Assembly: GCA_001820485.1 (NCBI GenBank)
Contig: MHPU01000039.1
Span: 30,904-94,903 of the forward strand
Direction: 5' to 3'
Length of the DNA stretch: 64,000 nt
From: Candidatus Staskawiczbacteria bacterium RIFOXYD1_FULL_32_13
GTDB lineage: Bacteria; Patescibacteriota; Minisyncoccia; Minisyncoccales; Staskawiczbacteraceae
A program made the position numbers and the translations under genes. Below, piece by piece: positions 12,568 to 63,964 of the stretch. Within the stretch, counting starts at the first letter, position 1. Every line of letters begins with the position of its first letter. The notes beneath the pieces were generated by a model. The model had not been told where the DNA came from. It did not search any database and was given only the letters and a program-made list of their open reading frames with translations.

Positions 12568-12579
12568 ATTACTAAAAAT

Positions 12580-16140: not shown

Positions 16141-16141
16141 A

Positions 16142-23633: not shown

Positions 23634-23749
23634 GTTAAGGTTAATCGGGTTTAGCGTGGGGAATTTTATTTATTAAAAATAGAATATCAACAGGGGCTGA
23701 AAGCCGGTTAACCTTAACAATTAACCCTTCGCTTTTCAGCCCCTTTTGG
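23634..23749. promoter_or_regulatory. Candidate res/recombination site upstream of the resolvase
   Basis: GTTAAGGTTAATCGG (23634-48) and CCGGTTAACCTTAAC (23704-18) form a 15-bp inverted repeat with one mismatch. A 12-bp-stem hairpin GGGGCTGAAAGC/GCTTTTCAGCCCC spans 23693-23743. Confidence 0.4.
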
Positions 23750-23760
23750 TTTGTAAAAAT

Positions 23761-24309: not shown

Positions 24310-24311
24310 TT

Positions 24312-25934: not shown

Positions 25935-26039
25935 TAATTATTGTGTGGTAAAACACTTCTATACATCTATGCGTAGAAGTGTTTTTGTTTTTAAGATTGA
26001 AAAATTAAAAATTTTGTGTTATATTTTAATTAAGAAACG

Positions 26040-26110
26040 GGGGACTTAGTTTAGTGGTAAAATGACTGTCTCCAAAACAGTAGATAGGGGTTCGATTCCC
26101 TTAGTCCCCG
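26040..26110 (+). tRNA. tRNA-Trp (CCA)
   Basis: The acceptor stem is GGGGACT/AGTCCCC. The anticodon stem ACTGT/ACAGT carries the loop CTCCAAA. The T loop is GGTTCGATTCC. No CCA is encoded. Confidence 0.85.
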
Positions 26111-45516: not shown

Positions 45517-45735
45517 ATGAATTATTTTTTTATTGGTTTATATATTTTATTGGCACTTACAGCAGTTTATTATATTGTATTTTTTGCATTACTTTATTAT
45601 TGGCATGAGAAAAAAGCTACTTTTGTAGTAGTTCCTATAATCTTTACATTTTACTTTTTTGCAATAGGTTTTTTAATTGTTTCTATTATCTCATTAGCTA
45701 TTGAATATTTACCAAGTTTTTTAAATAATTTATAA
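45517..45735 (+). CDS. Small 2-TM membrane protein
   Basis: It is 72 aa and almost entirely hydrophobic. Confidence 0.35.
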   Translation: MNYFFIGLYILLALTAVYYIVFFALLYYWHEKKATFVVVPIIFTFYFFAIGFLIVSIISLAIEYLPSFLNNL

Positions 45736-45753
45736 AATTATTTTTTTAAAAAA

Positions 45754-47154
45754 ATGGCAAGCAAAATTTACAAAACATATTTTTTCTTTATGCCTTGGGC
45801 AAGGAAGGCATTTTGGGATCCTTTTTGGTGGGCGATTTTATTTGTAGTAATTTTGTTTATTCCTTTTTTAAGACCTTGGGGATGGTTTTTTCTTCCAATG
45901 ATGTTAATTGTGCAACTAAAAGAACTTTATCTTTGGTGGATAATGTGGGATTTTACTTATGCAAAATTCAAATGGGTAGTAATTGAAATGATTCCACCAA
46001 AAGAAGTTTTGGCTCCGTTTAAAGCTATGGAAGATGTTTTTACTAGTCTTTGGCCAATATATGATTCTGGTAATTGGCGTGAGCAGTGGTGTGAGGGAGA
46101 ATTTGCTGAATCAGCATATTGGTTTTCTTGGGAAATTGTAAGTGCTGAAGGATCGGTCCATTTTTATTTAAGATGTCTTGCTCAGCATAGAAGGACTATA
46201 GAATCAATTATTTATGGTCATTATCCGGAAATAGAAATGCGTGAAGTGCCTGATTACTTAAAAGCTATTCCGCAAGATATACCCAACCAAGAGTGGGATT
46301 TGTATGGAGAAGATTGGATGTTTGAAAAAATAGATTGTTATCCTATTAGAACTTATGAAAAGTTTTTTGAGCCACAAGGCGAAAGGATTTCAGCAGAGGA
46401 AAAAAGAATAGATCCAATGGCCTCCTTACTTGAAGGGCTTTCTAGATTAGGTCCAGGTGAGCATTTTTGGATTCAATTTATTACAACTCCAGTTGTTGAT
46501 TCTGAAGTTGGACTTAATGCAATAGCAAAAAAAGAAATTGATAGAATTGCGAGGCGACCTGTTAAAAAAGAGAAAACATTTCTGCAAGATATAGGAGATT
46601 TGTTATATTACTTGATTATGGGACCTACAAAAGAGGGTAGTGGCGAAAAAGCAACTTATAAATTTCTCCCAAGAGTAATGGAGGATGAAGGTGATGATAA
46701 TGAGCTTATGTTAACTCCTGGAGAAAAAGAAGTTTTACTTGGTATTGAAGATAAAATGAAAAAGCCAATTTTTAAATGTTCTGTGAGAGGTGCTTATGTA
46801 GCTAAAAGGGAGAATTGGAGCGGGGCAAGTAAAAATGCTGGGAGAGGTTATTTTGGGCATTTTAAAACAATGCATTTAAATGCTCTAAGATATACTGGTG
46901 ATACAAGACCAAAGACTCATTATCTTTTTAGAAAAAGAAGAGCATATTTTAGAGCAAGAAAAATGTTTAGAAATATTGTTCGTCGTTTTCCTGCAATGTA
47001 TCCAGATATGAAAGCATATACAATACTTTTAAATTCTGAAGAATTGGCAACATTATTTCACTTTCCAAATAAACTTACAGGACTTGTTTCTCCATCAGTG
47101 GCAAGGGTGGAATCAAAGAGAGGTGGACCTCCAGAAAATTTGCCAATAGAATAA
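45754..47154 (+). CDS. Membrane-anchored hypothetical protein (2 N-terminal TM helices and a ~400-aa soluble domain)
   Basis: The N-terminus is rich in W/F with two TM helices, and the remainder is basic and aromatic with no known motif. It is the first gene of the zinc-ribbon paralog locus. Confidence 0.5.
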   Translation: MASKIYKTYFFFMPWARKAFWDPFWWAILFVVILFIPFLRPWGWFFLPMMLIVQLKELYLWWIMWDFTYAKFKWVVIEMIPPKEVLAPFKAMEDVFTSLWPIYDSGNWREQWCEGEFAESAYWFSWEIVSAEGSVHFYLRCLAQHRRTIESIIYGHYPEIEMREVPDYLKAIPQDIPNQEWDLYGEDWMFEKIDCYPIRTYEKFFEPQGERISAEEKRIDPMASLLEGLSRLGPGEHFWIQFITTPVVDSEVGLNAIAKKEIDRIARRPVKKEKTFLQDIGDLLYYLIMGPTKEGSGEKATYKFLPRVMEDEGDDNELMLTPGEKEVLLGIEDKMKKPIFKCSVRGAYVAKRENWSGASKNAGRGYFGHFKTMHLNALRYTGDTRPKTHYLFRKRRAYFRARKMFRNIVRRFPAMYPDMKAYTILLNSEELATLFHFPNKLTGLVSPSVARVESKRGGPPENLPIE

Positions 47155-47179
47155 AAAGCTATGTAATCATAAGTAAAAT

Positions 47180-47284
47180 CAGTGTCATTGCGAGCCCCGC
47201 TATAGCGGGGCGTGGCAATCTAGAGTTTGCATATAAAATTCTGGATTGCCACGCTCGCCTGCAGGCTCGCTCGCAATGACACTG
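47180..47284. repeat. 105-bp copy of the MITE-like palindromic repeat (extended TIR CAGTGTCATTGCGAG...CTCGCAATGACACTG)
   Basis: It lies between the 466-aa gene and paralog P1. The internal arms CGTGGCAATCTAGAG and CTGGATTGCCACG pair with each other. Confidence 0.7.
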
Positions 47285-47315
47285 CTACTATTGTTAAAAT
47301 AATTATTTAATTTAT

Positions 47316-49049: not shown

Positions 49050-49061
49050 AAATAAAAAAAT

Positions 49062-51563: not shown

Positions 51564-51588
51564 AAAGTTAAGGGTTGGCATATTTAAC

Positions 51589-51672
51589 GTCATTGTGAGG
51601 AGGTTTACAAACCGACGAAGCAATCTCAACGACTAGATTGCCACGCTCGCTTGTGGGCTCGCTCGCAATGAC
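51589..51672. repeat. 84-bp copy of the MITE-like palindromic repeat (variant TIR GTCATTGTGAGG)
   Basis: It reads GTCATTGTGAGGAGG...GACGAAGCAATCTCAAC...CTAGATTGCCACGCTCGC...GCTCGCAATGAC and overlaps the 5' end of cutA. Confidence 0.65.
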
Positions 51673-51682
51673 AATGATAACG

Positions 51683-51988
51683 ATGATTTTTATTTATGTG
51701 CCGTGTCAAAATTTAAATACAGCCAAAATTATTGCTAAGCTTTTAGTTGAGAAAAGGCTAGCAGGTAAAGTGGATATTATGTCCACGGATTCGTTTACTT
51801 GTGGGAACGATGGAGTGTCCGAGATTTCCGGGGCAACCTTGATTATTATGACTATAGATAAACATGTTCAAGCTATAGAGGACATTGTTAGAGAATATTA
51901 TCAAGATGGTATTCCTTGTATGGCTACAATTTCACTTTATCGTTTAAATAGGGATTTTAAAGATTGGTTAATAGGAGCTACAAGTTAG
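51683..51988 (+). CDS. cutA: CutA1 divalent-cation tolerance protein homologue
   Basis: MIFIYVPCQNLNTAKIIAKLLVEKRLAGKVDI...ATLIIMTIDKHVQAIEDIVREY fits the CutA fold pattern. Alternative ATG starts at 51668 and 51674 lie inside the repeat. Confidence 0.55.
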   Translation: MIFIYVPCQNLNTAKIIAKLLVEKRLAGKVDIMSTDSFTCGNDGVSEISGATLIIMTIDKHVQAIEDIVREYYQDGIPCMATISLYRLNRDFKDWLIGATS

Positions 51989-52047
51989 AGTTGTTGAAAT
52001 TACTAAAAAAATTTATGATTATAAATAAAAATTATTTGTTCTATTGC

Positions 52048-52067
52048 AGGTTGTCATATGACAACCT
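52048..52067. promoter_or_regulatory. Perfect 20-bp palindrome AGGTTGTCATATGACAACCT
   Basis: It lies 9 bp upstream of the HTH gene and is a candidate operator. Confidence 0.6.
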
Positions 52068-52075
52068 AATAAATT

Positions 52076-52264
52076 ATGAATCAAATCGTAAAGAGAGATT
52101 TTTATACAACAAGTGAATTAGCTGTTGTGCTAGGAATCAGCAAACAATCTGTGTTAAAAAGAATGCACAATGGTTCGATTAAGGCAATAAAAATGGGGCG
52201 TGATTTTATAATTTTTAAGAAGCATATTAATCTAGAAAAATTGAAATCTATAATCAAACATTAA
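52076..52264 (+). CDS. Excisionase/MerR-superfamily small HTH DNA-binding protein
   Basis: The 62-aa protein reads TTSELAVVLGISKQSVLKRMHNGSIKAIKMGRDFIIF, an HTH_17-like segment. Confidence 0.55.
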   Translation: MNQIVKRDFYTTSELAVVLGISKQSVLKRMHNGSIKAIKMGRDFIIFKKHINLEKLKSIIKH

Positions 52265-52270
52265 AATATT

Positions 52271-52290
52271 AGGTTGTCGTATGACAACTT
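52271..52290. promoter_or_regulatory. Near-perfect 20-bp palindrome AGGTTGTCGTATGACAACTT
   Basis: It is a second copy of the operator-like palindrome. It lies 7 bp after the HTH gene and 41 bp upstream of paralog P2. Confidence 0.6.
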
Positions 52291-52330
52291 AATATTATCG
52301 GGAAAATAATAAATCTAGGTATAAAAAATT

Positions 52331-54064
52331 ATGGATAGTCAAACAAAAAATTGTCAAAATTGCAAGAAAGACTTTACTATAGAATCCGATGATTTTGCAT
52401 TTTATGAAAAAATGAAAGTCCCTGTGCCAACTTTTTGTTGGAAATGCAGAGCAATTAGAAGAATGTGTTTTCGAAATATGCGACAACTTTATATTAGAAA
52501 CTGTGATGCAACAGGTAAAAAAATATTTACTTTAATGCCTCCGGATAATCCGATGCCGGTTTATGATAATGATTATTGGCGTAGCGATGCTTGGGATCCT
52601 ATGAAATACGAAAAAAATTACGATTTTTCAAATGCGTTCTTTGAGCAAATAAAGGAATTATATAATTCTGTTCCATGGGGAATTATGTGGAGTATGGATA
52701 TGGTTAATTGTGAGTATAGTGGTGGGGTTTCCTTTTCTAAAAATTGTTATATGTGTTTTGATTCTGGATACGATGAAGATTGTATGTATAATGTTACAGT
52801 GCTCTATAGCAAAAAATGCCTTGATAGTATAAATTTAAAAGATTGCGAACTTTGTTATTATTGTATTAATACCAATAAGTCATATAAAACATTATTTTCA
52901 CGAAATTGTACTTCTTGTGTAGATGTATGGTTTAGTCAAGATTGTATCGGATGTACAAATTGTTTTGGGTGCAGTGGCTTAAAAAATAAAAGTTATTATA
53001 TTTTTAACGAAGTTTATGACAAGGCGACATACGAAACGAAAATTGCAGATTTAAAACTTGATAGTTGGTCGGGAATAAAAAGTGCCAAGAATCAGGCAAA
53101 AAATTTTTGGGAAAAATGTTCGGTAAAATTTTATCATGGCACTCAGGTAACAAAAAGTTTTGGAGATTATTTATATAATGGTACGGAATTAAGAAACTGT
53201 TTTTTTGTGGGAAATGCGCAGAATATGAAACACTGTCAAAGTGTAATTTATCCCCCAAATCAAGACAGTATGGATGTTACCTCAAGCGAAGGCACTGAAT
53301 TGGCTTATGAGGTATTTTGTTGTGGCAATGGAGTACGTAGATCGATTGGATTGGCTGAATGCTCTAATGTATATGATGCTTATTATTCAATAAACTGCAG
53401 GCAGTCAAATAATTTATTTGGATGCGTGTCTTTAAAAGGTAAGGAATATTGTATCTTAAATAAACAATATACGAAAGAAAAATATCTGGAAATGATTCCT
53501 AAAATTATAAAGCATATGAATGATATGCCATATATTGACGCGCTTGGAAGGGTTTATAAATACGGAGAATTTTTCCCAACGGACATGAGTTCTTATGGCT
53601 ATAATCAATCGCAGGCATTTGAATATTTTCCGATAAATGAGCAAGAAGCCAAAAAACAAGGATATCGTTGGCATGAGGCCAATGAGAGAAGTTACCAAAT
53701 CACTAAAAAATCAAGTGACTTACCAGAAAAAATAGAAGAAGTAAGTGACGAAATTTTAAAAGAAGTTATTCAATGTGAGCACGATGAATTTAAAAAACAT
53801 AAAGATGGATGTAATTTAGAGTGCACCCGCGCTTTTAAGATAACATTACAGGAATTGCAATTTTATAGGCAGATGGATCTACCTTTACCGAGGCTTTGTT
53901 TTAACTGCAGACATATTGATAGGGTTGCTTGGAGAAATCAACCAAAATTATATAAAAGAAAATGTATGAAACCAGGATGTCAAAATGAATTTGAAACTTC
54001 TTACGCTCCCGACAGACCAGAAATAGTTTATTGCGAAGCTTGCTACAATCAAGAAGTTGCATAA
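52331..54064 (+). CDS. Zinc-ribbon-rich paralog P2 (577 aa)
   Basis: It has the same architecture as P1: CQNCKKDFTIESDDFAFYEKMKVPVPTFCWKCRAIRR ... CFNCRHIDR...CMKPGCQNEFETSYAPDRPEIVYCEACYNQEVA. Confidence 0.6.
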   Translation: MDSQTKNCQNCKKDFTIESDDFAFYEKMKVPVPTFCWKCRAIRRMCFRNMRQLYIRNCDATGKKIFTLMPPDNPMPVYDNDYWRSDAWDPMKYEKNYDFSNAFFEQIKELYNSVPWGIMWSMDMVNCEYSGGVSFSKNCYMCFDSGYDEDCMYNVTVLYSKKCLDSINLKDCELCYYCINTNKSYKTLFSRNCTSCVDVWFSQDCIGCTNCFGCSGLKNKSYYIFNEVYDKATYETKIADLKLDSWSGIKSAKNQAKNFWEKCSVKFYHGTQVTKSFGDYLYNGTELRNCFFVGNAQNMKHCQSVIYPPNQDSMDVTSSEGTELAYEVFCCGNGVRRSIGLAECSNVYDAYYSINCRQSNNLFGCVSLKGKEYCILNKQYTKEKYLEMIPKIIKHMNDMPYIDALGRVYKYGEFFPTDMSSYGYNQSQAFEYFPINEQEAKKQGYRWHEANERSYQITKKSSDLPEKIEEVSDEILKEVIQCEHDEFKKHKDGCNLECTRAFKITLQELQFYRQMDLPLPRLCFNCRHIDRVAWRNQPKLYKRKCMKPGCQNEFETSYAPDRPEIVYCEACYNQEVA

Positions 54065-54126
54065 GAGTAAATGTATAGGTTTAACTGTATATTGTATAGA
54101 TTTATAATTTGTGATATAATATAAAT

Positions 54127-54855
54127 ATGATAGAAAATAATGAAGAATTATTAACTATTGGAGAAACAGCAGAATTATTGGGCGTTTCAATTATGACTTT
54201 AAGACGCTGGGATGAAAGTGGTCGGCTGATTTCTGTTAGAAAAAAAGAAGGTGGAAATAGGTATTACAGAAAATCAGATGTTGATATTTTTTTAAGTGAT
54301 TTGTTTAAAATTGCCAAAGAATGGGTTTTGAAAGAAAGTGATTTGCCAGAAAGTTTTTATTGTCAAAATAGCGCTGTTTTTCAAGCACGACTTGCAAAAA
54401 TGGAAAATTTGATGATTGCAAATAGAATGACAGAAGACTTTGCTTCTCGTATTGTTTCAATCGCCGGTGAAATTGGGAATAACTCATTTGACCATAATTT
54501 AGCTCAATGGCCCGATGTCCCTGGAATTTTCTTTGCTTTTGATTTAAATAAAAAACAACTTGTTTTAGCTGACAGGGGATTGGGAGTTTTTAAAACCTTA
54601 AAAAGAGTAAAGCCAGAAATTGAAAATGACAAGCAGGCTTTAGAAGTGGCATTCACTGAAATTATTTCTGGCAGGGCTCCAGAAGAAAGGGGTAATGGTT
54701 TAAAATATGTAAAATTCATTATTTCTAAAAATAATATAAATTTATTTTTTCAAACAGGAGGTGCAATATTAAATTTAAATGCCAATAGTTCTAGCTTGAA
54801 AATATCAGAGGCAAAAGATAATTTTCACGGATGTTTGGTTTTAATAAAATGGTAA
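54127..54855 (+). CDS. MerR-type HTH fused to a GHKL/HATPase_c (RsbW/SpoIIAB-like anti-sigma-factor kinase) domain
   Basis: The N-terminal HTH reads LTIGETAELLGVSIMTLRRWDESG. The C-terminal N-box is EIGNNSFDH, the G1 LADRGLG, and the G2 ERGNGL. Confidence 0.55.
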   Translation: MIENNEELLTIGETAELLGVSIMTLRRWDESGRLISVRKKEGGNRYYRKSDVDIFLSDLFKIAKEWVLKESDLPESFYCQNSAVFQARLAKMENLMIANRMTEDFASRIVSIAGEIGNNSFDHNLAQWPDVPGIFFAFDLNKKQLVLADRGLGVFKTLKRVKPEIENDKQALEVAFTEIISGRAPEERGNGLKYVKFIISKNNINLFFQTGGAILNLNANSSSLKISEAKDNFHGCLVLIKW

Positions 54856-55136
54856 TTGAATTAAAAAAAATTGGAACAACTTTAATTTCACGTCAAACCG
54901 GTAAAGAGGCTTTTTTAGCAATACAACCAATTCTTCAAAATTTGAAAAGTGATGAAAAGGTAGAAATTGATTTTGAAGGTGTGATGACTTTTTCTCCATC
55001 ATGGGGGGCGGAATTTTTAATGCCACTTTTTAAAAAGTATGGACAAAATTTAATTTTAAAAAACACTCATAATGGTTCAGTACAATCAACATTGGAATTT
55101 CTAGAACAAATTGAAAATATAAAATTTAAAAAATAA
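54849..55136 (+). CDS. STAS-like (anti-sigma-antagonist-like, DUF4325-type) small protein, copy 1
   Basis: It is 95 aa and reads MVIELKKIGTTLISRQTGKEAF...VEIDFEGVMTFSPSWGAEFL. It overlaps the upstream HATPase gene by 7 nt. Confidence 0.45.
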   Translation: MVIELKKIGTTLISRQTGKEAFLAIQPILQNLKSDEKVEIDFEGVMTFSPSWGAEFLMPLFKKYGQNLILKNTHNGSVQSTLEFLEQIENIKFKK

Positions 55137-55184
55137 AGTGTTAATTGTTACATATCAGGTTAATGAGCATTAACTTAAAATTTT

Positions 55185-56918
55185 ATGAATTCAGAAATTA
55201 AAAACTGCCAAAATTGTAAGCAAGAATTCACAATTGAATCTGAGGATTTTGATTTTTATGAAAAAGTGAAAGTCCCTGCGCCAACTTTTTGCCCCGAATG
55301 TAGAATGCAAAGAAGAATGATTTTTATGAATGAAAGAGCATTATATAAGCGTCAATGTGATTTATGCCATAAAGATGTTATTTCAGTATTTCCTGCAAAC
55401 GCAACCCATCCGGTTTATTGTACTCCTTGTTGGTGGTCTGATAATTGGAACCCATTAATTTATGGCAAGGATTACGATTTTTCTAAATCTTTTTTCCAGC
55501 AGTTTAAAGAACTAATGTCGGTTTTTCCGTGGCCGGCGCTTGATACTATTGAGCCATCAATGGTAAATAGTCCTTATTGTAGTATTAGTTCTTACCTTAA
55601 AAACTGTTATTTTTTTCATAATTCAGATTACAGTGAAAATTCTGCTTATGGGGCTTTTACAGAGCGCGCAAAAGATTCATATGACCTTTTTACAATTGAT
55701 GGTTGTGAGCAATGTTATGAGGGTGTAAATCTTGTAAACTGTAACTGTGCATTGTTTTCTATGAATTGTGAAAATTGTCACAATGTTTCTTTTTCAAGAG
55801 ATCTTACAGGTTGCTCTTATTGTTTTGGATGCATTAATTTGCGAAACAAAAACTATTATATTTTTAATGAACCGTATAGTAAAGAAGAATATTTTTCAAA
55901 ATTAAAAACATTTGATGCTGGTTCGTATAAAGCAGTTCAGGGTGTTAAAGAAAATGCAAAATCATTGTTTTTAAAATCTCCAAGGCGCTTTGCTCACTCG
56001 CGTAGAAACTCAAAAACAACTGGAGAATATGTTAATCAATCCAAGAATACTCAATTTGCTTATCAAGTTATTGGCGCTGAAGATTCAAAGTATGTGCATT
56101 TTCTAATTATTGCCCCAACAAAAGATAGTTATGATCTTACAATGTGGGGTGGAAATGCCAATCGACTCTATGAATGCATGGGGTGTGGTGGAGGTCAGGA
56201 TGATGTAAAATTTTCTTATGGTTGTTGGTCTGATGCAACAATGAATCTTGAATATTGTATGGTTGTAAAAGTGCCATGTACAAATCTTTTTGGATGTATT
56301 GGCTTAAGAAGAAAATCTTATTGTATACTTAACAAGCAATATACAAAAGAGGAATATAATTTATTGTGCGACAAAATAATTAAACACATGAATGATGCAC
56401 CTTTTATTGATAAGCTAGGAAAAGTTTATAAGTATGGTGAATTTTTTCCTGCAGAACTTGGTCAGTTTGCGTACAATGAAAGTGTTGCTCAACAATTTTT
56501 TCCTTTAGATAAGCAAGAAGCTATAAAGCAGGGCTATAATTGGAAAGACTCTGAAGAAAGAAATTATAAAATAGATTTAAAATCGCAAAATTTGCCAGAC
56601 CACATAAAAGATGTTTCAGATGACATAGCGGGTAAAGTTATTGAGTGTGCTCATAAAGGGGAGTGTAATGAGCAATGCACAACTGCTTATAAAATTATTC
56701 CACAAGAACTGCAATTTTATAAAAAAATGGATTTACCTTTGCCTAGATTGTGCCCAAACTGTAGACATTATCAAAGACTGGCTCAAAGAAATCCAATTAA
56801 ACTTTGGCATAGGCAGTGCATGAATGTGGGGTGTAAAAATGAATTTGAAACAAGCTATGCTCCAGATAGGCCAGAGATTATTTACTGTGAAACATGCTAT
56901 AACAACGAAGTGGCATAA
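55185..56918 (+). CDS. Zinc-ribbon-rich paralog P3 (577 aa)
   Basis: It reads CQNCKQEFTIESEDFDFYEKVKVPAPTFCPECRMQRR ... CPNCRHYQR...CMNVGCKNEFETSYAPDRPEIIYCETCYNNEVA. Confidence 0.6.
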   Translation: MNSEIKNCQNCKQEFTIESEDFDFYEKVKVPAPTFCPECRMQRRMIFMNERALYKRQCDLCHKDVISVFPANATHPVYCTPCWWSDNWNPLIYGKDYDFSKSFFQQFKELMSVFPWPALDTIEPSMVNSPYCSISSYLKNCYFFHNSDYSENSAYGAFTERAKDSYDLFTIDGCEQCYEGVNLVNCNCALFSMNCENCHNVSFSRDLTGCSYCFGCINLRNKNYYIFNEPYSKEEYFSKLKTFDAGSYKAVQGVKENAKSLFLKSPRRFAHSRRNSKTTGEYVNQSKNTQFAYQVIGAEDSKYVHFLIIAPTKDSYDLTMWGGNANRLYECMGCGGGQDDVKFSYGCWSDATMNLEYCMVVKVPCTNLFGCIGLRRKSYCILNKQYTKEEYNLLCDKIIKHMNDAPFIDKLGKVYKYGEFFPAELGQFAYNESVAQQFFPLDKQEAIKQGYNWKDSEERNYKIDLKSQNLPDHIKDVSDDIAGKVIECAHKGECNEQCTTAYKIIPQELQFYKKMDLPLPRLCPNCRHYQRLAQRNPIKLWHRQCMNVGCKNEFETSYAPDRPEIIYCETCYNNEVA

Positions 56919-57018
56919 AGGCATAAAATGTGGACTTTTGGGCTATAATGTGGTATTATAATCGTATATTATGTTAAAAATAACATAATTTAAGAATATA
57001 CTTAATAAATACAAGATT

Positions 57019-57633
57019 ATGCAATTTATTGAATTTAAGCAACAATTAAGTAATTTTGTAGCTTTTGATCTTACTGATATAAGGAAAATCCAAGCAGATT
57101 TTGATTTACGTAGATTGTCTGAGTGGCAAGATAAGGGCTATATTAAAATGATCCGCAAGGGTTATTATATTTTTTCTGATTTAGAAATTAATGAGCAGGT
57201 TTTGTTTTTAATTGCAAACAAAATTTATGAGCCATCATATGTTTCCTGCGAAATGGCATTATCTTTTTATGGACTTATCCCAGAAGGAGTTTATTCCATA
57301 ACTTCAATTACAACTAAGAATACAATTAAGTTTAGCACACCTATCGCGGAATTCTCATATCGCAAGGTAAAGCCGGAATTATTTTTTGGGTATAAGTTGC
57401 TAAAGATAGAAAATCAACAATACAAAATTGCAGAAATTGAAAAGACAGTTTTAGATTATTTATATTTAAACCCACAAATGCAGAATGATGCTAATTTTTC
57501 TGAATGGCGTTTTAATGCCCAAGATTTTTTGGCTAAAGCAGATTTGGCAAAGTTTAATGATTATTTAAAGGTTTTTAGCAATAAGCAATTAAACAAGCGA
57601 GTAGAAAAGTTTTTAAACTTTATTAAGCAATAA
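57019..57633 (+). CDS. AbiEi-like antitoxin/transcriptional regulator (type IV TA)
   Basis: The N-terminal AbiEi_4-like domain reads LSEWQDKGYIKMIRKGYYIF. The gene lies immediately upstream of an AbiEii nucleotidyltransferase. Confidence 0.55.
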   Translation: MQFIEFKQQLSNFVAFDLTDIRKIQADFDLRRLSEWQDKGYIKMIRKGYYIFSDLEINEQVLFLIANKIYEPSYVSCEMALSFYGLIPEGVYSITSITTKNTIKFSTPIAEFSYRKVKPELFFGYKLLKIENQQYKIAEIEKTVLDYLYLNPQMQNDANFSEWRFNAQDFLAKADLAKFNDYLKVFSNKQLNKRVEKFLNFIKQ

Positions 57634-57637
57634 GTTT

Positions 57638-58414
57638 ATGTTAACTCTTCAGCAAATTGAAAAGCAATATCCTGAAAACTTACAACCATTTAAGCGGGGA
57701 ATTTTACGCGAATATTTGCAATACAAAATTTTAGAGATTATTTTTTCTTCCAAGTTTGCCAACAAACTTTCTTTTATGGGTGGAACGGTTTTGCGACTTA
57801 TTTATGGAAACACAAGATTTTCAGAAGATTTAGATTTTGACAATTTTGCCTTGTCTGAAAAAGAGTTTGACGAGTTGTCTGGAATAATTAAAAAGAGCTT
57901 GGAATTACAGGGATTAAAAACAGAAATTAGTACAGTTGCCAAAGGAGCATTTAGGTGCAATATACGATTGCCGGAAATTTTGTTTGAGAATAATCTTTCT
58001 TTATTTAAGGAAGAGAAGATTTTAATTCAAGTGGATTCGTTTGCTCAAAATTTTGATTATAAGCCTGAGAAAAAAAACTTGAACAAATTTGATGTGTTTT
58101 CTGAAATTTTTATAACTCCGCCGGACATTTTACTTTCTCAAAAGATTTATGCAATTTTTAATCGCAAAAGAGCAAAGGGCAGGGATTTTTATGATATTGT
58201 GTTTTTACTTTCTTTTACTAAACCAAATTATAAATATTTAAAACAAAAATTGGATATTAATTCGCCCGAAGAATTAAAAAGAAAAATTATTTCCCTTTCT
58301 GTTGATTTAAATTTTGAGGAATTGGCAAAAGATGCAGAAATGTTTCTTTTTTCTGGGCAAGATAGCAAAAAAATTAAGTCATTTGTTGATTATATTAAAC
58401 AAATTGAATTATAA
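57638..58414 (+). CDS. AbiEii/AbiGii-family nucleotidyltransferase toxin (DUF1814)
   Basis: LREYLQYKILEII...FMGGTVLRLIYGNTRFSEDLDFD fits the pol-beta NTase GG[ST]x9-13DxD motif of the AbiEii family. Confidence 0.7.
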   Translation: MLTLQQIEKQYPENLQPFKRGILREYLQYKILEIIFSSKFANKLSFMGGTVLRLIYGNTRFSEDLDFDNFALSEKEFDELSGIIKKSLELQGLKTEISTVAKGAFRCNIRLPEILFENNLSLFKEEKILIQVDSFAQNFDYKPEKKNLNKFDVFSEIFITPPDILLSQKIYAIFNRKRAKGRDFYDIVFLLSFTKPNYKYLKQKLDINSPEELKRKIISLSVDLNFEELAKDAEMFLFSGQDSKKIKSFVDYIKQIEL

Positions 58415-58420
58415 AAAATT

Positions 58421-60184
58421 ATGGAATTTCAAAACCATTCGCCTGAGGGCTCAGGGCAAGCTAAAAATTGTCAAAACTGTAAGAAAGACTTTACCATAGA
58501 GCCTGATGATTTTGCATTTTATGAAAAAATTAAAGTACCTGTGCCAACTTTTTGTTCAGAGTGTAGAATGCAACGTAGATTGCTTTTTCGTAGTGAACGT
58601 TTTTTGTATAAACGTAAAAGCGATTTTTCTGGTAAGGAAATATTTTCTATGTGGCCACAGGAAAGCGATACTAAAGTTTATGAAAACAGCGTTTGGTTTT
58701 CTGATAAGTGGGATGCACTTGAGCACGGTAAAGATTATGATTTTTCTAAACCATTTTTTGAACAACTTTTAGATTTACGAAAAAATGTTCCAATCTACGC
58801 TTTATCAACTACGCTTGGAGTAGACAGTGATTATTGCAATAATTTTACAGCATTAAAGAATTGCTATTTAGTTTTTTCTTCTAATTATTCTGAAGATTGT
58901 ATGTATGGCACTGGAATAAATCATTCAAAAAACTGTATTGATAACATCAAGGTATTTAAAAGTGAAAATTGTCATGAAAATTTTTTTGTTAATTCCTCTT
59001 TCAATGTTTTCTTTTCTGCTCAATGTTCAGATTCAATGAATATTTGGTTTTGCAAGGATTGTGTGGGGTGTAACGATTGCATTGGATGTATTGGTTTGCG
59101 AAATAAAAGCTATTATATTTTTAATAAACCTTATACAAAAGAAGAATATCAAGCTGAATTTCAAAAATTTAATTTTGCTTCATATCAGGCGATGAAAGAT
59201 TTTTCTAAAAAAGTCCACGAATTTTGGCTTAAATTTCCAGTAAAGTATATGCAGGGTCTGAAGAACTCTAATGTTAGTGGAGAATATATAAAAAATTCAA
59301 AAAATGTTTTAAATTCATACTTAGTTTCTGGTGGTGAAAATTTGAGATATTGTAGTGAAATTAATGTTGAGCCAGTTAAAGATTGTTATGATTATTCTGT
59401 TTGGGGAGATAAGGCCGAGTTAGTTTATGAGTGCATGTCTTGTGGGCTAGGTGTAAACAACATAAAATTTTGTGCAGAGTGTTGGCCTGACTTTAGAGAT
59501 TCAGAATATTCTCTTTTTTGTCAATCATCATCAAATCTTTTTGGGTGTGTTGGTGTAAGAAAAAAAGAATATTGTATTTTAAATAAGCAGTACACAAAAG
59601 AAGAATATGAGCGCTTAAAAGAAAAGATTATCAAACATATGAAAGAAATGCCATATAAGGATGCAAGTGGCATGTTGTATAGTTATGGTGAATTTTTCCC
59701 TGGAATATTTTCTGGTGTGTTCTACAATAATTCTTTGGCTCACGAACACTTTCCATTAACAAAAACAGAAGCTGAAAGAAAAGGATATTTTTGGAAAGAT
59801 GAAACAAAACGTGCTTATGTTGTAACCAAAAAGTATAGTGACTTGCCAGATGACATTAAAGAGGTTCCAGTTTCGATTACTAGTGAAATTATTTCTTGCC
59901 AAGAATGGGAAGAAAACCAAGATATTGCAGTTCAGCACAATTGTACCGAAGGGTTTCGTATACTTGTCTCGGAATTGGAATTTTACAAAAAGTTTTCTTT
60001 ACCACTTCCTAGAAGGTGCCCTAACTGTAGATACCACGAACGTATAAAATGGCGCAACCCAATGAAGTTATGGCATAGAAAATGTATGAAACCTGGTTGC
60101 AATAATGAATTTGAAACATCTTATGCGCCAGATAGGCCAGAGATTGTATATTGTGAAACATGCTATAATAATGAAGTTGCATAA
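58421..60184 (+). CDS. Zinc-ribbon-rich paralog P4 (587 aa)
   Basis: It reads CQNCKKDFTIEPDDFAFYEKIKVPVPTFCSECRMQRR ... CPNCRYHER...CMKPGCNNEFETSYAPDRPEIVYCETCYNNEVA. Confidence 0.6.
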   Translation: MEFQNHSPEGSGQAKNCQNCKKDFTIEPDDFAFYEKIKVPVPTFCSECRMQRRLLFRSERFLYKRKSDFSGKEIFSMWPQESDTKVYENSVWFSDKWDALEHGKDYDFSKPFFEQLLDLRKNVPIYALSTTLGVDSDYCNNFTALKNCYLVFSSNYSEDCMYGTGINHSKNCIDNIKVFKSENCHENFFVNSSFNVFFSAQCSDSMNIWFCKDCVGCNDCIGCIGLRNKSYYIFNKPYTKEEYQAEFQKFNFASYQAMKDFSKKVHEFWLKFPVKYMQGLKNSNVSGEYIKNSKNVLNSYLVSGGENLRYCSEINVEPVKDCYDYSVWGDKAELVYECMSCGLGVNNIKFCAECWPDFRDSEYSLFCQSSSNLFGCVGVRKKEYCILNKQYTKEEYERLKEKIIKHMKEMPYKDASGMLYSYGEFFPGIFSGVFYNNSLAHEHFPLTKTEAERKGYFWKDETKRAYVVTKKYSDLPDDIKEVPVSITSEIISCQEWEENQDIAVQHNCTEGFRILVSELEFYKKFSLPLPRRCPNCRYHERIKWRNPMKLWHRKCMKPGCNNEFETSYAPDRPEIVYCETCYNNEVA

Positions 60185-60241
60185 GAGTAAATGTATAGGT
60201 TTGACTGTATATTGTATAGATTTATAAAAAATGTTAATAAA

Positions 60242-60529
60242 ATGGTAATTGAATTAAAAAAAATTGGGACAACTTTAATTTCAAGGCAAACTGGCAAGGA
60301 GGCTTTTTTGGCAATACAGCCGATATTGCAAAGTGTAAAAAACGAGGAAATAGTTGAAATTGATTTTGAGGGCGTAATGACTTTTTCTCCTTCTTGGGGG
60401 GCAGAATTTTTAATGCCACTTTTTAAAAAATATGGGCAAATTTTAGTTCTGAAAAATACGCACAATGGCTCAGTTAGTTTAACAATTGAATTTCTAGAAC
60501 AAATAGAAAATATAAAATTCAAAAAATAA
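60242..60529 (+). CDS. STAS-like small protein, copy 2
   Basis: It is close to identical to copy 1 by eye, and its upstream 50 bp duplicate the 54062-54120 segment. Confidence 0.45.
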   Translation: MVIELKKIGTTLISRQTGKEAFLAIQPILQSVKNEEIVEIDFEGVMTFSPSWGAEFLMPLFKKYGQILVLKNTHNGSVSLTIEFLEQIENIKFKK

Positions 60530-60532
60530 ATT

Positions 60533-62290
60533 ATGGATAGCCAAACCCATTTGCCTGCGGGCTTAGGGCAAGCCAAAAACTGTCAGAATTGTAAACAAGA
60601 ATTCGTCATTGAGAGCGATGATTTTGCATTTTATGGAAAAATAAAAGTTCCACCACCAACCTTTTGTCCGGATTGTAGATTACAGAGACGTCTTATATTT
60701 AGAAATGAGCATTTTTTATATAAAGTAAAAAGTGATTTTTCTGGCAAGGATATTTTTTCTATGCAACCTAGAGAAGGTGGATTAAAGATTTATGAGAATG
60801 ATGTGTGGTACTCTGATCAATGGAGCGCAACTAATTTTGGAATGGAGTATGATTTTTCTAAACTGTTTTTTTTCCAACTCAACAAATTACTTCGTACTGT
60901 GCCAATTTTTGCACTTTCTGTAATTCGCGGAGTAAACAGTCCTTATTCTAACAACTTCGATGGATTTAGAAATTGTTATTTGTGTTTTAATGGAAATTAT
61001 TGCGAAGATTGTATGTATGGTGTTACATTGAGTAATTCTAAAAATTCTTTAGATCTCTCTGCATGCTCAAAATGTGAAAATTGTTATGAAAGTTTTTGGC
61101 TTGAATCTTGCACGAATTGTTTTTATTGCAATCAATGTTCTGATTCTTTCAATTTATGGTTTTGTAAAAATTGCGTTGGTTGTAATGATTGTTTTGGTTC
61201 AGTTAATTTGCGAAATAAAAAATACTGTATATTTAACCAACAATATACAAGAGATCAATATATCGTAAAAATAAAAGAATTTAATATGGATTCGTACGCA
61301 TCTGTCTTACAAGTTATGAATGAAATCAATGCTTTTTGGTTGCGACATCCTGTAAAATTTTTGCAAGGTTTAAAAAATATGAATGTTTCTGGTAATTATG
61401 TTTATAATTCTAAAAATGCAAAAAACTCTTTCTTAATTCGAGAGGCTGAGAATGTTCGTTATTGTTCTTATATGGAAATTGGCCCATTACGTGATTGTTA
61501 TGATTATACTGTATGGGGGAATGGAGCAGAGCTTCTTTATGAAGCACTTAATACTGGTCTTGGCGCACATAATGTAAGGTTTTCTGCAGAATGTTGGCCA
61601 GAAGTGCGTAACATAGAATATTCGCTTTTTTGTCAGTCATCATCTAATCTTTTTGGATGTGTTGGTTTACGTAATAAACAATATTGTATTTTAAATAAAC
61701 AGTATACAAAAGAAGAATACGAAGCGCTTGTGCCTAAAATTATTGAACATATGAATGAAATGCCTTACGTTGATCCAAAAGGTAATTCTTATTGCTATGG
61801 TGAATTCTTTCCACCAATGATGTCACTTTATGCATATAATCATAGTCCCGCACAAGAACATTTTCCTATGATTAAAATTCAGGCTGAAGCGATTCAATGT
61901 TTTTGGATAGATTCTGAAGACCGAGGCTATCAAATAACAAAAAAATCATCAGAGTTACCCGATTCTATTAATGATGTAGATGATATAATAACTAAAGAAA
62001 TTATTTTATGCGAAGAATGGGGTAAAAATGAAGAAAAAGCAAAATTGAATAATTGTACCAAAGCATTTCGAATTTTGTCCAATGAATTGGAATTTTATCG
62101 TCGTTATAATATCCCTTTGCCTAGAAAATGTTTTTATTGTCGTCACAATAATCGTATTAAAAATAGAAATCCTTTTAAGTTGTGGAATCGTCAATGCACT
62201 AAATGTGGGAAAGAATTTGAGACAAGTTATGCTCCAGATAGGCCTGAGATTGTGTATTGTGAAACGTGCTACAACCAAGAAGTTGCTTAA
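60533..62290 (+). CDS. Zinc-ribbon-rich paralog P5 (585 aa)
   Basis: It reads CQNCKQEFVIESDDFAFYGKIKVPPPTFCPDCRLQRR ... CFYCRHNNR...CTKCGKEFETSYAPDRPEIVYCETCYNQEVA. Confidence 0.6.
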   Translation: MDSQTHLPAGLGQAKNCQNCKQEFVIESDDFAFYGKIKVPPPTFCPDCRLQRRLIFRNEHFLYKVKSDFSGKDIFSMQPREGGLKIYENDVWYSDQWSATNFGMEYDFSKLFFFQLNKLLRTVPIFALSVIRGVNSPYSNNFDGFRNCYLCFNGNYCEDCMYGVTLSNSKNSLDLSACSKCENCYESFWLESCTNCFYCNQCSDSFNLWFCKNCVGCNDCFGSVNLRNKKYCIFNQQYTRDQYIVKIKEFNMDSYASVLQVMNEINAFWLRHPVKFLQGLKNMNVSGNYVYNSKNAKNSFLIREAENVRYCSYMEIGPLRDCYDYTVWGNGAELLYEALNTGLGAHNVRFSAECWPEVRNIEYSLFCQSSSNLFGCVGLRNKQYCILNKQYTKEEYEALVPKIIEHMNEMPYVDPKGNSYCYGEFFPPMMSLYAYNHSPAQEHFPMIKIQAEAIQCFWIDSEDRGYQITKKSSELPDSINDVDDIITKEIILCEEWGKNEEKAKLNNCTKAFRILSNELEFYRRYNIPLPRKCFYCRHNNRIKNRNPFKLWNRQCTKCGKEFETSYAPDRPEIVYCETCYNQEVA

Positions 62291-62446
62291 ATAAAAAAGT
62301 TCCTATATTCTAGCATATAGGAACTTTTTGTGATAATATAAAAAAAGAAATATTTAAATAAAATAATTAAAAAATATATAAGAGTCTAATGTTTGGGGAA
62401 TGGTAAGTGACTGGACCCTAAACCCTATACCCTAGATCCTAATAAA

Positions 62447-63964
62447 ATGGCAGAGCAAAAACAAAATAGAATTCGTAGATTTAAACTAGCGCCACCTCCT
62501 CCAGAGCTTCCAATTTATGGCTCGGTAAAACCCGAGGACTGTTCTTTTATTGGTAAAACTAATTACGAAGCAGCTTTGCAAGAGCAAAAATATATTTTTG
62601 GTGTAAAGCGTGTTGATAGACGTAGGCATATGTATATTGTAGGAAAATCCGGGGTAGGGAAGTCTAAACTTCTTGAGCTTTTTGTTAGGCAAGATATTGG
62701 TTATGGTCATGGTATTTGTTTTATTGATCCTCACGGAGATGTTATAGAAGATATTCTACCTTTTATACCAGAAAACAGAATTAAAGATGTGGTGCTTATT
62801 GACCCGTCTGATGCAAAATTTCCAATTTCTTTTAATCCACTTGCAAATATTGATGTTAATTTTAAGCATCAATTGACCCAAGGATTAATTGAAGTTTTGG
62901 AAAAACAATTTGGTGCTAACTGGACGCCACGATTAGAACATGTATTTAGGTTTACATGTTTAGCACTTTTAGATTATCCGCACGGCACTATGCGTGGAAT
63001 GATTTCAATGCTTACAGATAGAAATTATCGTCAGCTTGTTGTGGAATATATTCAAGATGATATGGTAAAAAGATTTTGGGCCATTGAATTTGCCGATTGG
63101 TCTGAAAAATATGACACAGAAGCTATTATACCTTTGGTAAATAAACTTGCTCAATTTTTGTCTGATCCAATGCTTCGTGGAATTTTTGGACAAGAAGAAA
63201 ATAAGATTGATTTAGAGCAGATGATGAATGAAAAAAAGATTATTTTGATAAATTTATCTAAAGGTAAACTTGGTGAAGAAAATTCTAGTTTTTTTGGTTC
63301 AATGTTTATTACTAAGTTAAAGCAAGCTGGTATGGCACGTCAGTCTATACCAGAAAAAGATAGAGTTGATTTTTATTTGTATGTTGATGAGTTTCACAAC
63401 CTAATGACCGAAACTTTTGAAAACATTTTGTCTGAAGCTAGAAAATATGGTATGTGTCTTACTGTGGCTCACCAGTATATGGGTCAGCTTTTGCCAAAAG
63501 TTCAACAAGCAGTTTTAGGAAATACAGGAACTATTATTGTGTTTCGTGTAGGTGGTGAAGATGCAGTTAAATTGGAACCAGAAATGGCGCCGGTTTTTGG
63601 AGCCAAAGATATGGTAAACTTGGGAGTTCAAAATTTTTATATAAAAGAAACTATTGATGGGGAGGCTTACGATCCTTTTTCTGCTCAAACTCTTAAAGTT
63701 ATGCCACCAGCACATGAGTCTTTTAGAGAAGAGATCGTTGCAATGTCTCGCGAAAAATATGCTGTTCCGGCCGAGGCTGCACAGAAACTTATGCAACAAG
63801 AAGAATCAAAAATTATGCGAAGCTCGCACGAAAAATCCATAATTGAAGGCAAGGGAAAAGGTCCCGTCTCCGCTGAAGCTTCGGCGGGCAAGCCTGAAGT
63901 TAGAGAAGAAAAATCCTCCTCCGCTAAAGCTACGGAGGACAAGCCCGAAGAACCACTTATATAA
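62447..63964 (+). CDS. VirD4/TraD-like (T4CP-like) P-loop ATPase B (505 aa), a short paralog of ATPase A
   Basis: The Walker A is VGKSGVGKSK, the Walker B LYVDEFHNL, and VAHQYMGQL is also present. It aligns along the ATPase core of 49062..51563 but lacks the zinc ribbon and the long repeat tail. Confidence 0.65.
   Translation: MAEQKQNRIRRFKLAPPPPELPIYGSVKPEDCSFIGKTNYEAALQEQKYIFGVKRVDRRRHMYIVGKSGVGKSKLLELFVRQDIGYGHGICFIDPHGDVIEDILPFIPENRIKDVVLIDPSDAKFPISFNPLANIDVNFKHQLTQGLIEVLEKQFGANWTPRLEHVFRFTCLALLDYPHGTMRGMISMLTDRNYRQLVVEYIQDDMVKRFWAIEFADWSEKYDTEAIIPLVNKLAQFLSDPMLRGIFGQEENKIDLEQMMNEKKIILINLSKGKLGEENSSFFGSMFITKLKQAGMARQSIPEKDRVDFYLYVDEFHNLMTETFENILSEARKYGMCLTVAHQYMGQLLPKVQQAVLGNTGTIIVFRVGGEDAVKLEPEMAPVFGAKDMVNLGVQNFYIKETIDGEAYDPFSAQTLKVMPPAHESFREEIVAMSREKYAVPAEAAQKLMQQEESKIMRSSHEKSIIEGKGKGPVSAEASAGKPEVREEKSSSAKATEDKPEEPLI

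Follow-up and report, generated by a model that had tools for sequence, protein, structure and literature searches.

Cysteine-rich paralog arrays beside two VirD4/TrwB-like ATPases and a DUF8128 membrane protein in Patescibacteria

What do five large, Cys-rich paralogs do beside two ATPases that resemble the coupling proteins (T4CPs) of type IV secretion systems (T4SSs)? This question is raised by a 64,000-nt stretch of the genome of Candidatus Staskawiczbacteria bacterium RIFOXYD1_FULL_32_13 (contig MHPU01000039.1, positions 30,904 to 94,903; hereafter the window), in which five co-directional genes, P1 to P5, encode proteins of 577-587 aa and are bracketed by a probable DUF8128 membrane protein and a pair of VirD4/TrwB-like ATPases (A and B). 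All coordinates are positions in this stretch, and L001-L091 label the loci sampled in other genomes. The window is ordinary chromosome, with SecA, DinB, SecD, and SecF upstream of the array. Every gene of the five-paralog array and its flanks that had been listed in a preliminary description of the sequence was recovered by our open reading frame (ORF) scan, in each case at the position given there and on the + strand (Table 1). The order of the genes (72-aa transmembrane [TM] protein, DUF8128, P1, A, CutA, P2-P5, B) is a permuted version of a module that was found again in all Paceibacteria/Parcubacteria-type lineages that we sampled. The core parts of this module are DUF8128, a small TM protein, the soluble paralogs A and B, which are homologs of hexameric ATPases, usually CutA, and a co-directional array of P genes. 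Our tentative reading is that it forms a T4SS-derived, membrane-docked coupling or translocation motor, of which the P proteins may be clients, either as cargo or as adaptors.

A recurrent neighbourhood of P genes and VirD4/TrwB-like ATPases

Gene neighbourhoods were compared in two samples. The P-centred sample comprised 79 loci around P relatives, taken from one genome per species, and the loci of two further P homologs, which gave 82 non-redundant sources with the window included and is biased toward relatives of P3. Because these loci were picked via P, loci around B orthologs were sampled too; the seven B-centred loci (L085-L091) represent only B orthologs of at least 72% identity. Within ±10 kb, one P gene was present in 27 loci, two in 18, three in 17, four in 11, and five to nine in 11, and 227 of 228 P genes were co-directional. 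An A-type ATPase, a B-type ATPase, or DUF8128 occurred in 31 of the 82 P-centred loci, where 41 of the 44 full-length ATPase genes stood at most two genes from a P gene. All seven B-centred loci, which are labelled Jorgensen-, Lipton-, or Brennerbacteria, Minisyncoccia, or carry no label, showed the order SecF, sigma70r4/HARE-HTH, DUF8128, 155-180-aa TM protein, B, and then one to six P genes, with CutA in most of them. The association of P genes with the ATPases, first proposed from the window, is stronger than it was from the sequence alone, because it recurs across lineages.

Two layouts account for this association. In Nomurabacteria-like genomes, the module is arranged as wHTH<-DnaK-A-P(1-4)-B-DnaJ-P, where the winged helix-turn-helix (wHTH) gene is small and divergent (L007, L012, L014, L024, L036, L039, L041, L047, L048, L064, L076, and L080). 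In 8 loci, A lies downstream of DnaK, adjoining it or separated from it by one or two small ORFs, and in 10 loci B lies directly 5' of DnaJ. This placement in a chaperone operon may reflect heat-shock co-regulation or lineage-specific gene order alone. In Staskawicz-, Jorgensen-, Lipton-, and related bacteria, the order is SecD-SecF-sigma70r4/HARE-HTH-DUF8128-(TM protein)-B or A-P(n)-CutA. SecF, usually together with SecD, precedes the module in all seven B-centred loci, as SecD/SecF do in L026, L059, L070, and L075; the gene for the Sigma70_r4/HARE-HTH protein is upstream of DUF8128 in nine P-centred and all seven B-centred loci; and CutA is found inside or beside a P array or adjoining B in at least 12 other loci. 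Two matters of labelling were noticed in this comparison. L064 (JAMPXW010000002.1) is a 268-kb contig labelled 'Burkholderiales bacterium' that carries a Nomurabacteria-type A-P-P-B-DnaJ order and is probably mis-binned or mislabelled, and many third-party annotation (TPA) records named 'uncultured Candidatus Saccharibacteria' have Paceibacteria-type synteny.

The same comparison bears on whether P and the ATPases are coupled at all. The preliminary description had named one outcome that would count against it, namely that P homologs are housekeeping proteins found without adjacent ATPases, and the result is divided. P genes stand at every sampled B locus, but no ATPase is present within 10 kb in 51 of the 82 P-centred loci, where the P arrays lie among housekeeping genes, such as ScpB/FtsW/MurG in L001 and TruB/RpoB in L002. 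P could be a cytoplasmic housekeeping family with a structural, cytoskeletal, or regulatory role, while A, B, and DUF8128 act on something else and the shared location reflects inherited gene order in very compact genomes. Consistent with this alternative, the P paralogs are ancient and under purifying selection (see below), and the P beta-solenoid weakly resembles bactofilin and left-handed beta-helix (LbH) scaffolds. However, the adjacency of P and A/B survives rearrangement, as seen in the two layouts and the permuted order of the window, P arrays occur at 7/7 B-centred loci, and A and P may have a type of zinc finger in common. We regard synteny without coupling as rather improbable.

The assignment of A and B, which are paralogs of 44% identity, as T4CP-like proteins with a full motif set was upheld. 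Both exceed the Pfam cutoffs for TrwB_AAD_bind (A, 55.8 bits, 4.8e-15; B, 39.4 bits, 4.6e-10; cutoff 20.5) and TraG-D_C (28 bits; cutoff 22), B alone exceeds that for T4SS-DNA_transf (29.6 bits, 4.4e-7; cutoff 20.1), and both contain Walker A (GKTGTGKT/GKSGVGKS), YLYVDE, and AHQY motifs. Their closest PDB sequences are TrwB and DotL. Both fall below the NCBIfam cutoffs for named T4CPs, which range from 250 to 650 bits (SXT_TraD, 45-51 bits against 366; conju_CD1115, 45-48 bits against 250). Neither protein has a hydrophobic or TM segment or an N-terminal TM anchor, and therefore anchoring would need DUF8128 or the small TM proteins. A contains a CxxC-x17-CxxC zinc finger at aa 460-494 (TIGR04272, 52.7 bits, cutoff 36; PF23477 zf_Tbcl_2, 54.4 bits, cutoff 27, 1e-14), which is kept in 18 of 24 A-type orthologs, and an E/K/Q-rich tail of 338 aa. 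B behaves as a core gene, because its orthologs are 73-94% identical across candidate phyla.

The 466-aa protein appears to belong to DUF8128 (PF26449), judging from PF26449 hits precomputed on its 55-60%-identity orthologs and on the DUF8128 genes in L085-L091. Its structural model (predicted local distance difference test [pLDDT] score 82.6) has a helical hairpin at the N-terminus and a cytoplasmic alpha/beta domain that lacks Walker motifs and whose predicted fold resembles that of VirB4 outside the ATPase core. Homologs of the 72-aa protein lie upstream of DUF8128 in Staskawiczbacteria loci L059 and L070; in other lineages, a 155-180-aa single-TM protein downstream of DUF8128 takes its place. 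The two TM segments of the 72-aa protein and the TM anchor of the 466-aa protein, both noted previously, were borne out by hydropathy and by the model, respectively. We also compared the C-termini of A, B, and DUF8128 with those of orthologs in L006-L091. Of 21 complete B orthologs, 19 carry E-[AEP]-EP-[LM]-I at the C-terminus (63950-63964 in the window) and two carry EEPIV. The conserved end of A has two forms, ..EVPEDVLRKILE and ..VI.PGE.IKF, and that of DUF8128 (47120-47154) reads ...ESKK.GPP.NLPI. These short conserved C-termini come after disordered tails and look like docking motifs.

The P family

P1-P5 align end to end, with identities of 42-48% between P1 and the others and of 60% between P4 and P5. 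Each protein has 29-38 Cys residues, the expected Cys motifs, and no hydrophobic segment, in support of the proposal that these are cytoplasmic, zinc-ribbon-rich paralogs; they are slightly acidic overall (pI 6.3-6.7). The predicted internal duplication of a Cys-rich unit, 'FGC.GLR.K.YCILNKQYTKEEY', is present as 10 copies in the DNA, two per P gene, and the N-terminal 'DF.FYEK.KVP.PTFC..CR' and C-terminal 'EL.FY..M.LPLPRLC.NCR' are repeats of each other. A second N-terminal zinc ribbon (C58/C61/C79/C82) is found in 73% of relatives and is kept within the window only by P3. Arg-rich helices come after the N- and C-terminal CxxC motifs, and the extreme C-terminus (..CYxxEV-x-COOH) is constant in length and sequence throughout the family.

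P3 was modelled in AlphaFold2 with 120 homologs as input. The resulting model, which is confident (pLDDT 87.5; predicted template modelling score [pTM] 0.88), begins with a treble-clef-like ribbon and a second ribbon, continues with two beta-solenoid segments, each capped by the conserved 'GC.GLR.K.Y.I.N..Y.KEEY' and a helix, and ends with the remaining Cys/His clusters and a CxxC...CxxC finger. According to this model, P would consist of zinc-ribbon/treble-clef modules at both ends and a duplicated Cys-rich beta-solenoid between them. In the first solenoid segment (P3 aa ~174-216; ~55704-55832), a CxxC or single Cys occurs every ~9-12 residues, and these residues (C174/177, 186, 195/198, 210/213/216) are 53-99% conserved. 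Model confidence is lowest in this same segment (pLDDT 60-68), and the Cys series could form an inter-coil metal ladder instead of a plain beta-helix core. A disulfide ladder is unlikely, because P is cytoplasmic. Cys-ladder and left-handed beta-helices (Tenebrio and budworm antifreeze proteins; LpxA/GlmU LbH) gave noise-level scores against P, Foldseek returned nothing significant, and, unlike LpxA/GlmU, P has no acyltransferase motifs.

The C-termini of P score 15.8-23 bits against TIGR04272 and PF23477, below the cutoffs of 36 and 27, and the N-terminus likewise gives sub-threshold matches to these models; the Cys pattern C-x2-4-C ... YAPDRPEI-x-YC-x2-C is present at the C-terminus. The C-terminal module may represent the finger type seen in ATPase A, with a weaker match. 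Among the CxxC-x17-CxxC families (TIGR04272/PF23477 zf_Tbcl_2; PF13451 zf_Tbcl), the finger of A passes TIGR04272 and PF23477, whereas the ends of P do not. Zinc binding by this domain was demonstrated by inductively coupled plasma mass spectrometry for small proteins of M. mazei (PMC12704099), and P proteins presumably bind zinc as well. The characterised examples are small, stand-alone archaeal proteins; by contrast, the fingers of P cap a 580-aa solenoid protein.

The family is very large. A word-indexed search gave more than 7,600 matches; among the matches listed, all those with a named source are from Patescibacteria and are annotated 'hypothetical', and almost all lack a Pfam domain, one having PF23477 only. 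An exhaustive profile search returned 2,246 clusters at 50% identity with E<=1e-30 and 5,215 with E<=1e-3, and the best 150 matches are nearly all full-profile proteins of ~550-610 aa, the shorter ones being truncated. No relatives were found in IMG/VR viral contigs or PLSDB plasmids. P had no Pfam, NCBIfam, PADLOC, or PHROG-type match, searches of structures and the PDB gave no solved homolog, and the P model had no significant Foldseek match. The preliminary description had named confident placement of P in a characterised family as a further outcome against its proposal, and these profile and solved-structure searches gave no such placement.

The preliminary description had portrayed P as a diversifying family with a constant C-terminal anchor and ~300 highly divergent residues after the first ribbon. 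The conserved C-terminus stood; divergence, however, is restricted to ~aa 120-360, with a conserved island at ~aa 200-240, and the N-terminal ~110 aa are as strongly conserved as the C-terminus. The diversifying character did not hold up. The closest relative of 163 of 167 P copies lies in another locus (median identity 59%, compared to 46% within the locus), and adjacent copies are 43% identical, compared to 42% for random family pairs. In the solenoid (~aa 119-358), orthologs are 48-67% identical and same-locus paralogs 25-34%, whereas the termini are 62-72% identical in both comparisons; across candidate phyla, P orthologs are 50-60% conserved. At these divergences, synonymous sites are saturated. 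Because the nearest relatives are in other loci and orthologs conserve the middle of the protein, the arrays consist of ancient paralog lineages, and the 'variable' region is paralog-specific and under purifying selection rather than hypervariable. Recent tandem duplication and diversifying selection were rejected, since adjacent copies resemble random pairs and orthologs keep the 'variable' region; P4/P5 and a duplicated segment containing a P end and a STAS-like gene (see below) are the only recent duplicates in the window.

These features of P and the ATPases could also fit a role in nucleic-acid handling, in which A and B would be DNA or RNA translocases, like conjugative T4CPs, FtsK, or the archaeal Ced importer, and P would be nucleic-acid-binding zinc-finger proteins involved in choosing or processing what is translocated. 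For nucleotide-scavenging organisms, such a system might serve to take up or export DNA or to handle the chromosome. A and B are members of the T4CP family with weak NCBIfam matches to the DNA-translocating CedD (E ~1e-6) and to TraD, and the very high conservation of B suits a core DNA transaction. Treble-clef and TFIIB-like zinc ribbons often bind nucleic acids, and the Arg-rich helices after the terminal CxxC motifs of P are consistent with such binding. These ribbons are discussed in relation to nucleic acids in PMC12704099. However, P proteins are slightly acidic and their terminal modules carry little net positive charge by residue count, the conserved neighbourhood has no relaxase, nuclease, recombinase, or ComEC-type gene, and the recurrent neighbours SecDF and DnaK/DnaJ handle protein, not DNA. 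Moreover, no DNA translocase is known to require old paralogs by the dozen, each with its own solenoid surface. Nucleic-acid handling is unlikely, although it carries the most weight among the alternatives to the motor reading.

The chaperone-operon layout suggests a further alternative, proteostasis or metal/redox buffering, in which A and B would be unfoldases or remodelling ATPases that act with DnaK/DnaJ, P would be zinc-Cys binders of a holdase-like or redox-sensing kind (Hsp33/DnaJ-style), and CutA would supply or buffer metal. The location of the Nomurabacteria-type module inside this operon, with the DnaK-A and B-DnaJ junctions described above, is consistent with this idea, as are the recurrence of CutA, the number of Cys residues in each P, and the CxxC pairs ~12 residues apart in the first solenoid. 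Yet the adjacency to DnaK/DnaJ is confined to one group of related lineages, with SecDF and DUF8128 found elsewhere, and membrane anchoring through DUF8128 is left unexplained. To our knowledge, no T4CP-type ATPase acts as a chaperone. We consider this alternative quite improbable.

Inserted genes and other features of the window

The remaining genes within the array, listed in Table 1, had been described as embedded regulatory and toxin-antitoxin genes. Their identification was largely confirmed (CutA, the excisionase-type helix-turn-helix [HTH] protein with its palindromes, the two STAS-like [DUF4325] genes, and AbiEi/AbiEii). The 16-nt palindromes GTTGTCATATGACAAC and GTTGTCGTATGACAAC lie on either side of the HTH_17 gene (52050-52076 and 52262-52288), and AbiEi and AbiEii, which are 4 nt apart, form a type IV toxin-antitoxin pair. 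For the gene described as MerR-HATPase_c, the MerR HTH (aa 5-60) was the only part matched by Pfam, NCBIfam, and PDB sequence searches; the HATPase_c half was not detected, and the N-box- and G-box-like strings are seen by eye only.

Table 1. Features of the P-ATPase locus, by position in the window
Feature	Coordinates	Strand	Evidence and remarks
secD	41249-42670	+	Pfam SecD; conserved upstream neighbour of module
secF	43254-44150	+	Pfam SecF; conserved upstream neighbour of module
342-aa Sigma70_r4 + HARE-HTH protein	44304-45332	+	Pfam Sigma70_r4 4.9e-10, HARE-HTH 5.4e-13; directly upstream of DUF8128
72-aa protein, two TM segments	45517-45735	+	Hydropathy: TM aa 8-26, 37-55
466-aa membrane protein, probable DUF8128 (PF26449)	45754-47154	+	N-terminal TM hairpin and cytoplasmic alpha/beta domain (model), no P-loop
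P1, 577 aa	47316-49049	+	P-profile hmmsearch 785 bits; 74% ortholog in L059
ATPase A, 833 aa	49062-51563	+	Soluble VirD4/TrwB-like P-loop ATPase, CxxC-x17-CxxC finger
CutA1-family protein	51638-51988	+	Pfam CutA1 1.4e-10
62-aa HTH_17/excisionase-family protein	52076-52264	+	Pfam HTH_17 1.5e-6, TIGR01764; probably accessory
P2, 577 aa	52331-54064	+	P profile 791 bits; best identity in sample <=47%, no close ortholog
MerR-type HTH protein	54127-54855	+	Pfam MerR 1.3e-11; overlaps STAS-like gene
DUF4325 STAS-like gene, first	54831-55136	+	Pfam DUF4325 1.9e-6
P3, 577 aa	55185-56918	+	Identical to hypothetical A2312_01890, Candidatus Staskawiczbacteria RIFOXYB2_FULL_32
AbiEi	57019-57633	+	PADLOC AbiEi 5.8e-62
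AbiEii	57638-58414	+	PADLOC AbiEii 2.7e-97; Pfam AbiEii 1.9e-17, 64.4 bits vs cutoff 22.5
P4, 587 aa	58421-60184	+	P profile 855 bits; 60% identical to P5
DUF4325 STAS-like gene, second	60191-60529	+	Pfam DUF4325 3.7e-5
P5, 585 aa	60533-62290	+	P profile 821 bits; 64% ortholog in L074
ATPase B, 505 aa	62447-63964	+	Soluble VirD4/TrwB-like P-loop ATPase, disordered acidic tail, ends ...EEPLI-COOH

The view of the regulatory and toxin-antitoxin genes as parts of the system was not sustained. No homolog of the AbiEi/AbiEii, MerR, or STAS genes was found in the 82 P-centred loci, and the HTH_17 gene had weak matches only, in two other P-centred loci; the L086 array holds an unrelated HTH_17 gene. 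MerR/STAS, HTH_17, and AbiE were ruled out as module parts for this lack of homologs and are treated as unrelated accessory genes inserted in a permissive array. Other genes stand at the equivalent position in other genomes: L090 has a GIY-YIG gene (9707-9997), and L091 (11508-17294) encodes an endonuclease of the BglII type, an N6/N4 methyltransferase fused to LexA, and a HicB-like (UPF0150) protein. The B-P junction and the array seem to be an insertion hotspot. The second STAS-like gene is the remnant of a duplicated segment composed of a P 3' end, MerR, and STAS. It has 85% nucleotide identity to 54841-55137, and the flank at 60050-60227 has 81% identity to 53930-54107, so that the duplicated segment (53930-55137 compared to 60050-60530) contains the P2 3' end, the downstream flank, and STAS, repeated after P4. 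The MerR gene is lacking in this second copy, and the STAS-like ORF there stands alone, with an unusual extension at its N-terminus.

The accessory genes are the point at which a defence function against mobile genetic elements (MGEs), proposed in the preliminary description, can be weighed. The ATPases and zinc-ribbon paralogs would then form a conflict system in which diversifying P proteins act as sensors. A and B have weak PADLOC matches to mad8 (E ~1e-12) and HerA (~1e-6), toxin-antitoxin and restriction-modification genes do enter the array (AbiE here; the BglII-type and HicB-like genes in L091), and a separate, probable PLD-SNF2/Eco57I-type defence island is present at 5.7-16 kb of the window. 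By contrast, the PADLOC scan left P1, P2, DUF8128, and the 72-aa protein unmatched, with strong matches only for AbiEi and AbiEii; P is without a PADLOC, PHROG-type, or Pfam match and has no relatives in IMG/VR viral contigs or PLSDB plasmids; the conservation of B across candidate phyla points to a core module, not a patchily distributed one; the P paralogs are ancient and conserved, not diversifying; and the defence-type genes of this array have no homolog in the P-centred loci. An anti-MGE function now appears very improbable.

Several other elements were observed in the window. A GC-rich palindromic element of ~100 nt (47178-47284), with arms of 49 nt that are 78% complementary, separates DUF8128 from P1, and a related half-copy (51633-51678) lies between A and cutA, so that the pair brackets P1-A; it looks like a repetitive extragenic palindromic (REP) or miniature inverted-repeat transposable element (MITE) type of sequence in an AT-rich genome. 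The probable defence island at 5687-16972 encodes a protein of 1120 aa with PLD-nuclease and SNF2/helicase parts, an Eco57I/MmeI-type methyltransferase of 1173 aa, and a 1186-aa protein without a Pfam match, after which comes a secreted-type SNase/Excalibur nuclease; it resembles DISARM or BREX in composition. Just downstream is a match to LOOT RNA (RF03000; 17020-17140; 91.5 bits, gathering threshold 46.4). The region 23746-26110 contains two adjacent serine-recombinase genes, for a resolvase of 187 aa and a large, zinc-ribbon-bearing recombinase of 540 aa, beside a tRNA gene (26040-26110), and may mark the boundary of an integrated element.

Function of the module

In the motor reading that we tentatively prefer, DUF8128 and the small TM protein would dock hexamers of A and B on the membrane, as in a split VirB3/VirB4-like or T4CP-like motor, and P proteins would be the clients of this motor. 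The constant terminal zinc modules and the fixed C-terminus of P would dock on the motor, and the paralog-specific, ortholog-conserved solenoid would give each old paralog a different target. P could then be cargo that is unfolded and either exported or passed to a T4SS encoded elsewhere, or P could be adaptors that deliver other cargo. Consistent with this reading, P adjoins A, B, or DUF8128 in two layouts, the ATPases pass T4CP thresholds, and A and P may have a finger type in common. The recurrence of the neighbourhood, the family assignments, the fold similarity, and the patterns of conservation are direct results of the comparisons above; that P binds zinc, that it physically interacts with the motor, and that anything is translocated is what we infer from them.

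Several findings weigh against this reading. Most P genes lie away from the motor, as the 51 ATPase-free loci show. VirB4, VirB6, VirB8, and relaxase genes are absent among the window ORFs scanned and among the called genes of L085-L091. Identification of DUF8128 with TrsD has no sequence support (hhalign of the DUF8128 alignment against pSK41 TrsD, probability 0.2, E 0.28). The conservation of P orthologs across candidate phyla sets them apart from effectors, which evolve fast, and would be just as compatible with a housekeeping role. Moreover, a channel that has to unfold its substrates would be ill suited to proteins with several zinc sites, and gene order in such small genomes can persist without a functional link.

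Comparison with known systems places the module near, but not within, several of them. Like the T4CPs TrwB of R388, VirD4, TraD, and DotL, A and B have a P-loop NTPase core, Walker A/B motifs, and a C-terminal tail that is acidic and disordered; partners dock on such a tail in TraD and DotL. Unlike these T4CPs, A and B have no N-terminal TM domain, are not near virB4, relaxase, or other T4SS genes, and are two core, extremely conserved paralogs per genome, of which A has the inserted finger. The pairing of a membrane-bound, non-ATPase, VirB4-like module with a separate DUF87/T4CP-type ATPase is like that in split VirB3/VirB4 systems (TrsD + TrsE of pSK41/pGO1; VirB3-VirB4 fusions), and pSK41, where TrsD is directly upstream of the DUF87 ATPase TrsE, provides a precedent for a split VirB4. 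However, the profile scores of A and B are nearer to VirD4/TrwB than to VirB4, and no VirB6, VirB8, or pilin genes are nearby. The X-Tfe/XVIPCD proteins of Xanthomonas and the BID proteins of Bartonella are families of T4SS effectors that bind VirD4 through a conserved C-terminal domain. By analogy, P may resemble such effectors in being multi-copy, with a constant C-terminal module, a variable body, and, in some cases, a location near a coupling ATPase; it differs from them in having zinc-ribbon constant parts at both ends, a solenoid body without a recognisable toxin or enzyme domain, and an ancient, conserved character. Type VII (FtsK-like EccC/EssC) loci likewise combine an FtsK/HerA-superfamily ATPase, small membrane partners, and arrays of paralogs without signal peptides, but the module has no EccC/EssC multi-domain ATPase, WXG100/LXG proteins, or homologs of EccB, EccD, or EssB. 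A, B, and DUF8128 can be placed in known superfamilies, but neither the P family nor the complete module matches a named system, as the preliminary description had suggested for this gene combination; Pfam, NCBIfam, and PADLOC are without a match for P, and no solved homolog was found.

A more far-reaching version of the motor reading is that DUF8128, the small TM protein, A, and B constitute an autonomous T4SS-derived machine for protein export or host delivery, core to Paceibacteria, with the P paralogs as its cargo. We consider this version improbable. If it were true, the dozens of old P paralogs would be a cargo repertoire, each solenoid for a different host or envelope target, and the module would be a secretion pathway, so far overlooked, that underlies life as an episymbiont.

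Patescibacteria represent a large share of bacterial diversity. A 2025 survey of 2,918 of their genomes counted 5,713 VirD4-like T4CPs, about two for each genome, of which only 148 are near virB4; relaxases are rare, and exaptation was considered possible (PMC12102498). In the literature on the P family, DUF8128/PF26449, and T4CP function in the candidate phyla radiation (CPR), we found nothing beyond PMC12102498 and PMC12704099. The module containing A and B accounts for both VirD4-like genes of a Patescibacteria genome, and these orphan ATPases are now tied to two conserved partners, the VirB4-like anchor DUF8128 and the very large P family. The orphan-T4CP question thereby becomes a concrete one, whether A and B bind, remodel, or export P. 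The P family makes up several percent of some very small genomes and merits definition as a family, regardless of its function.

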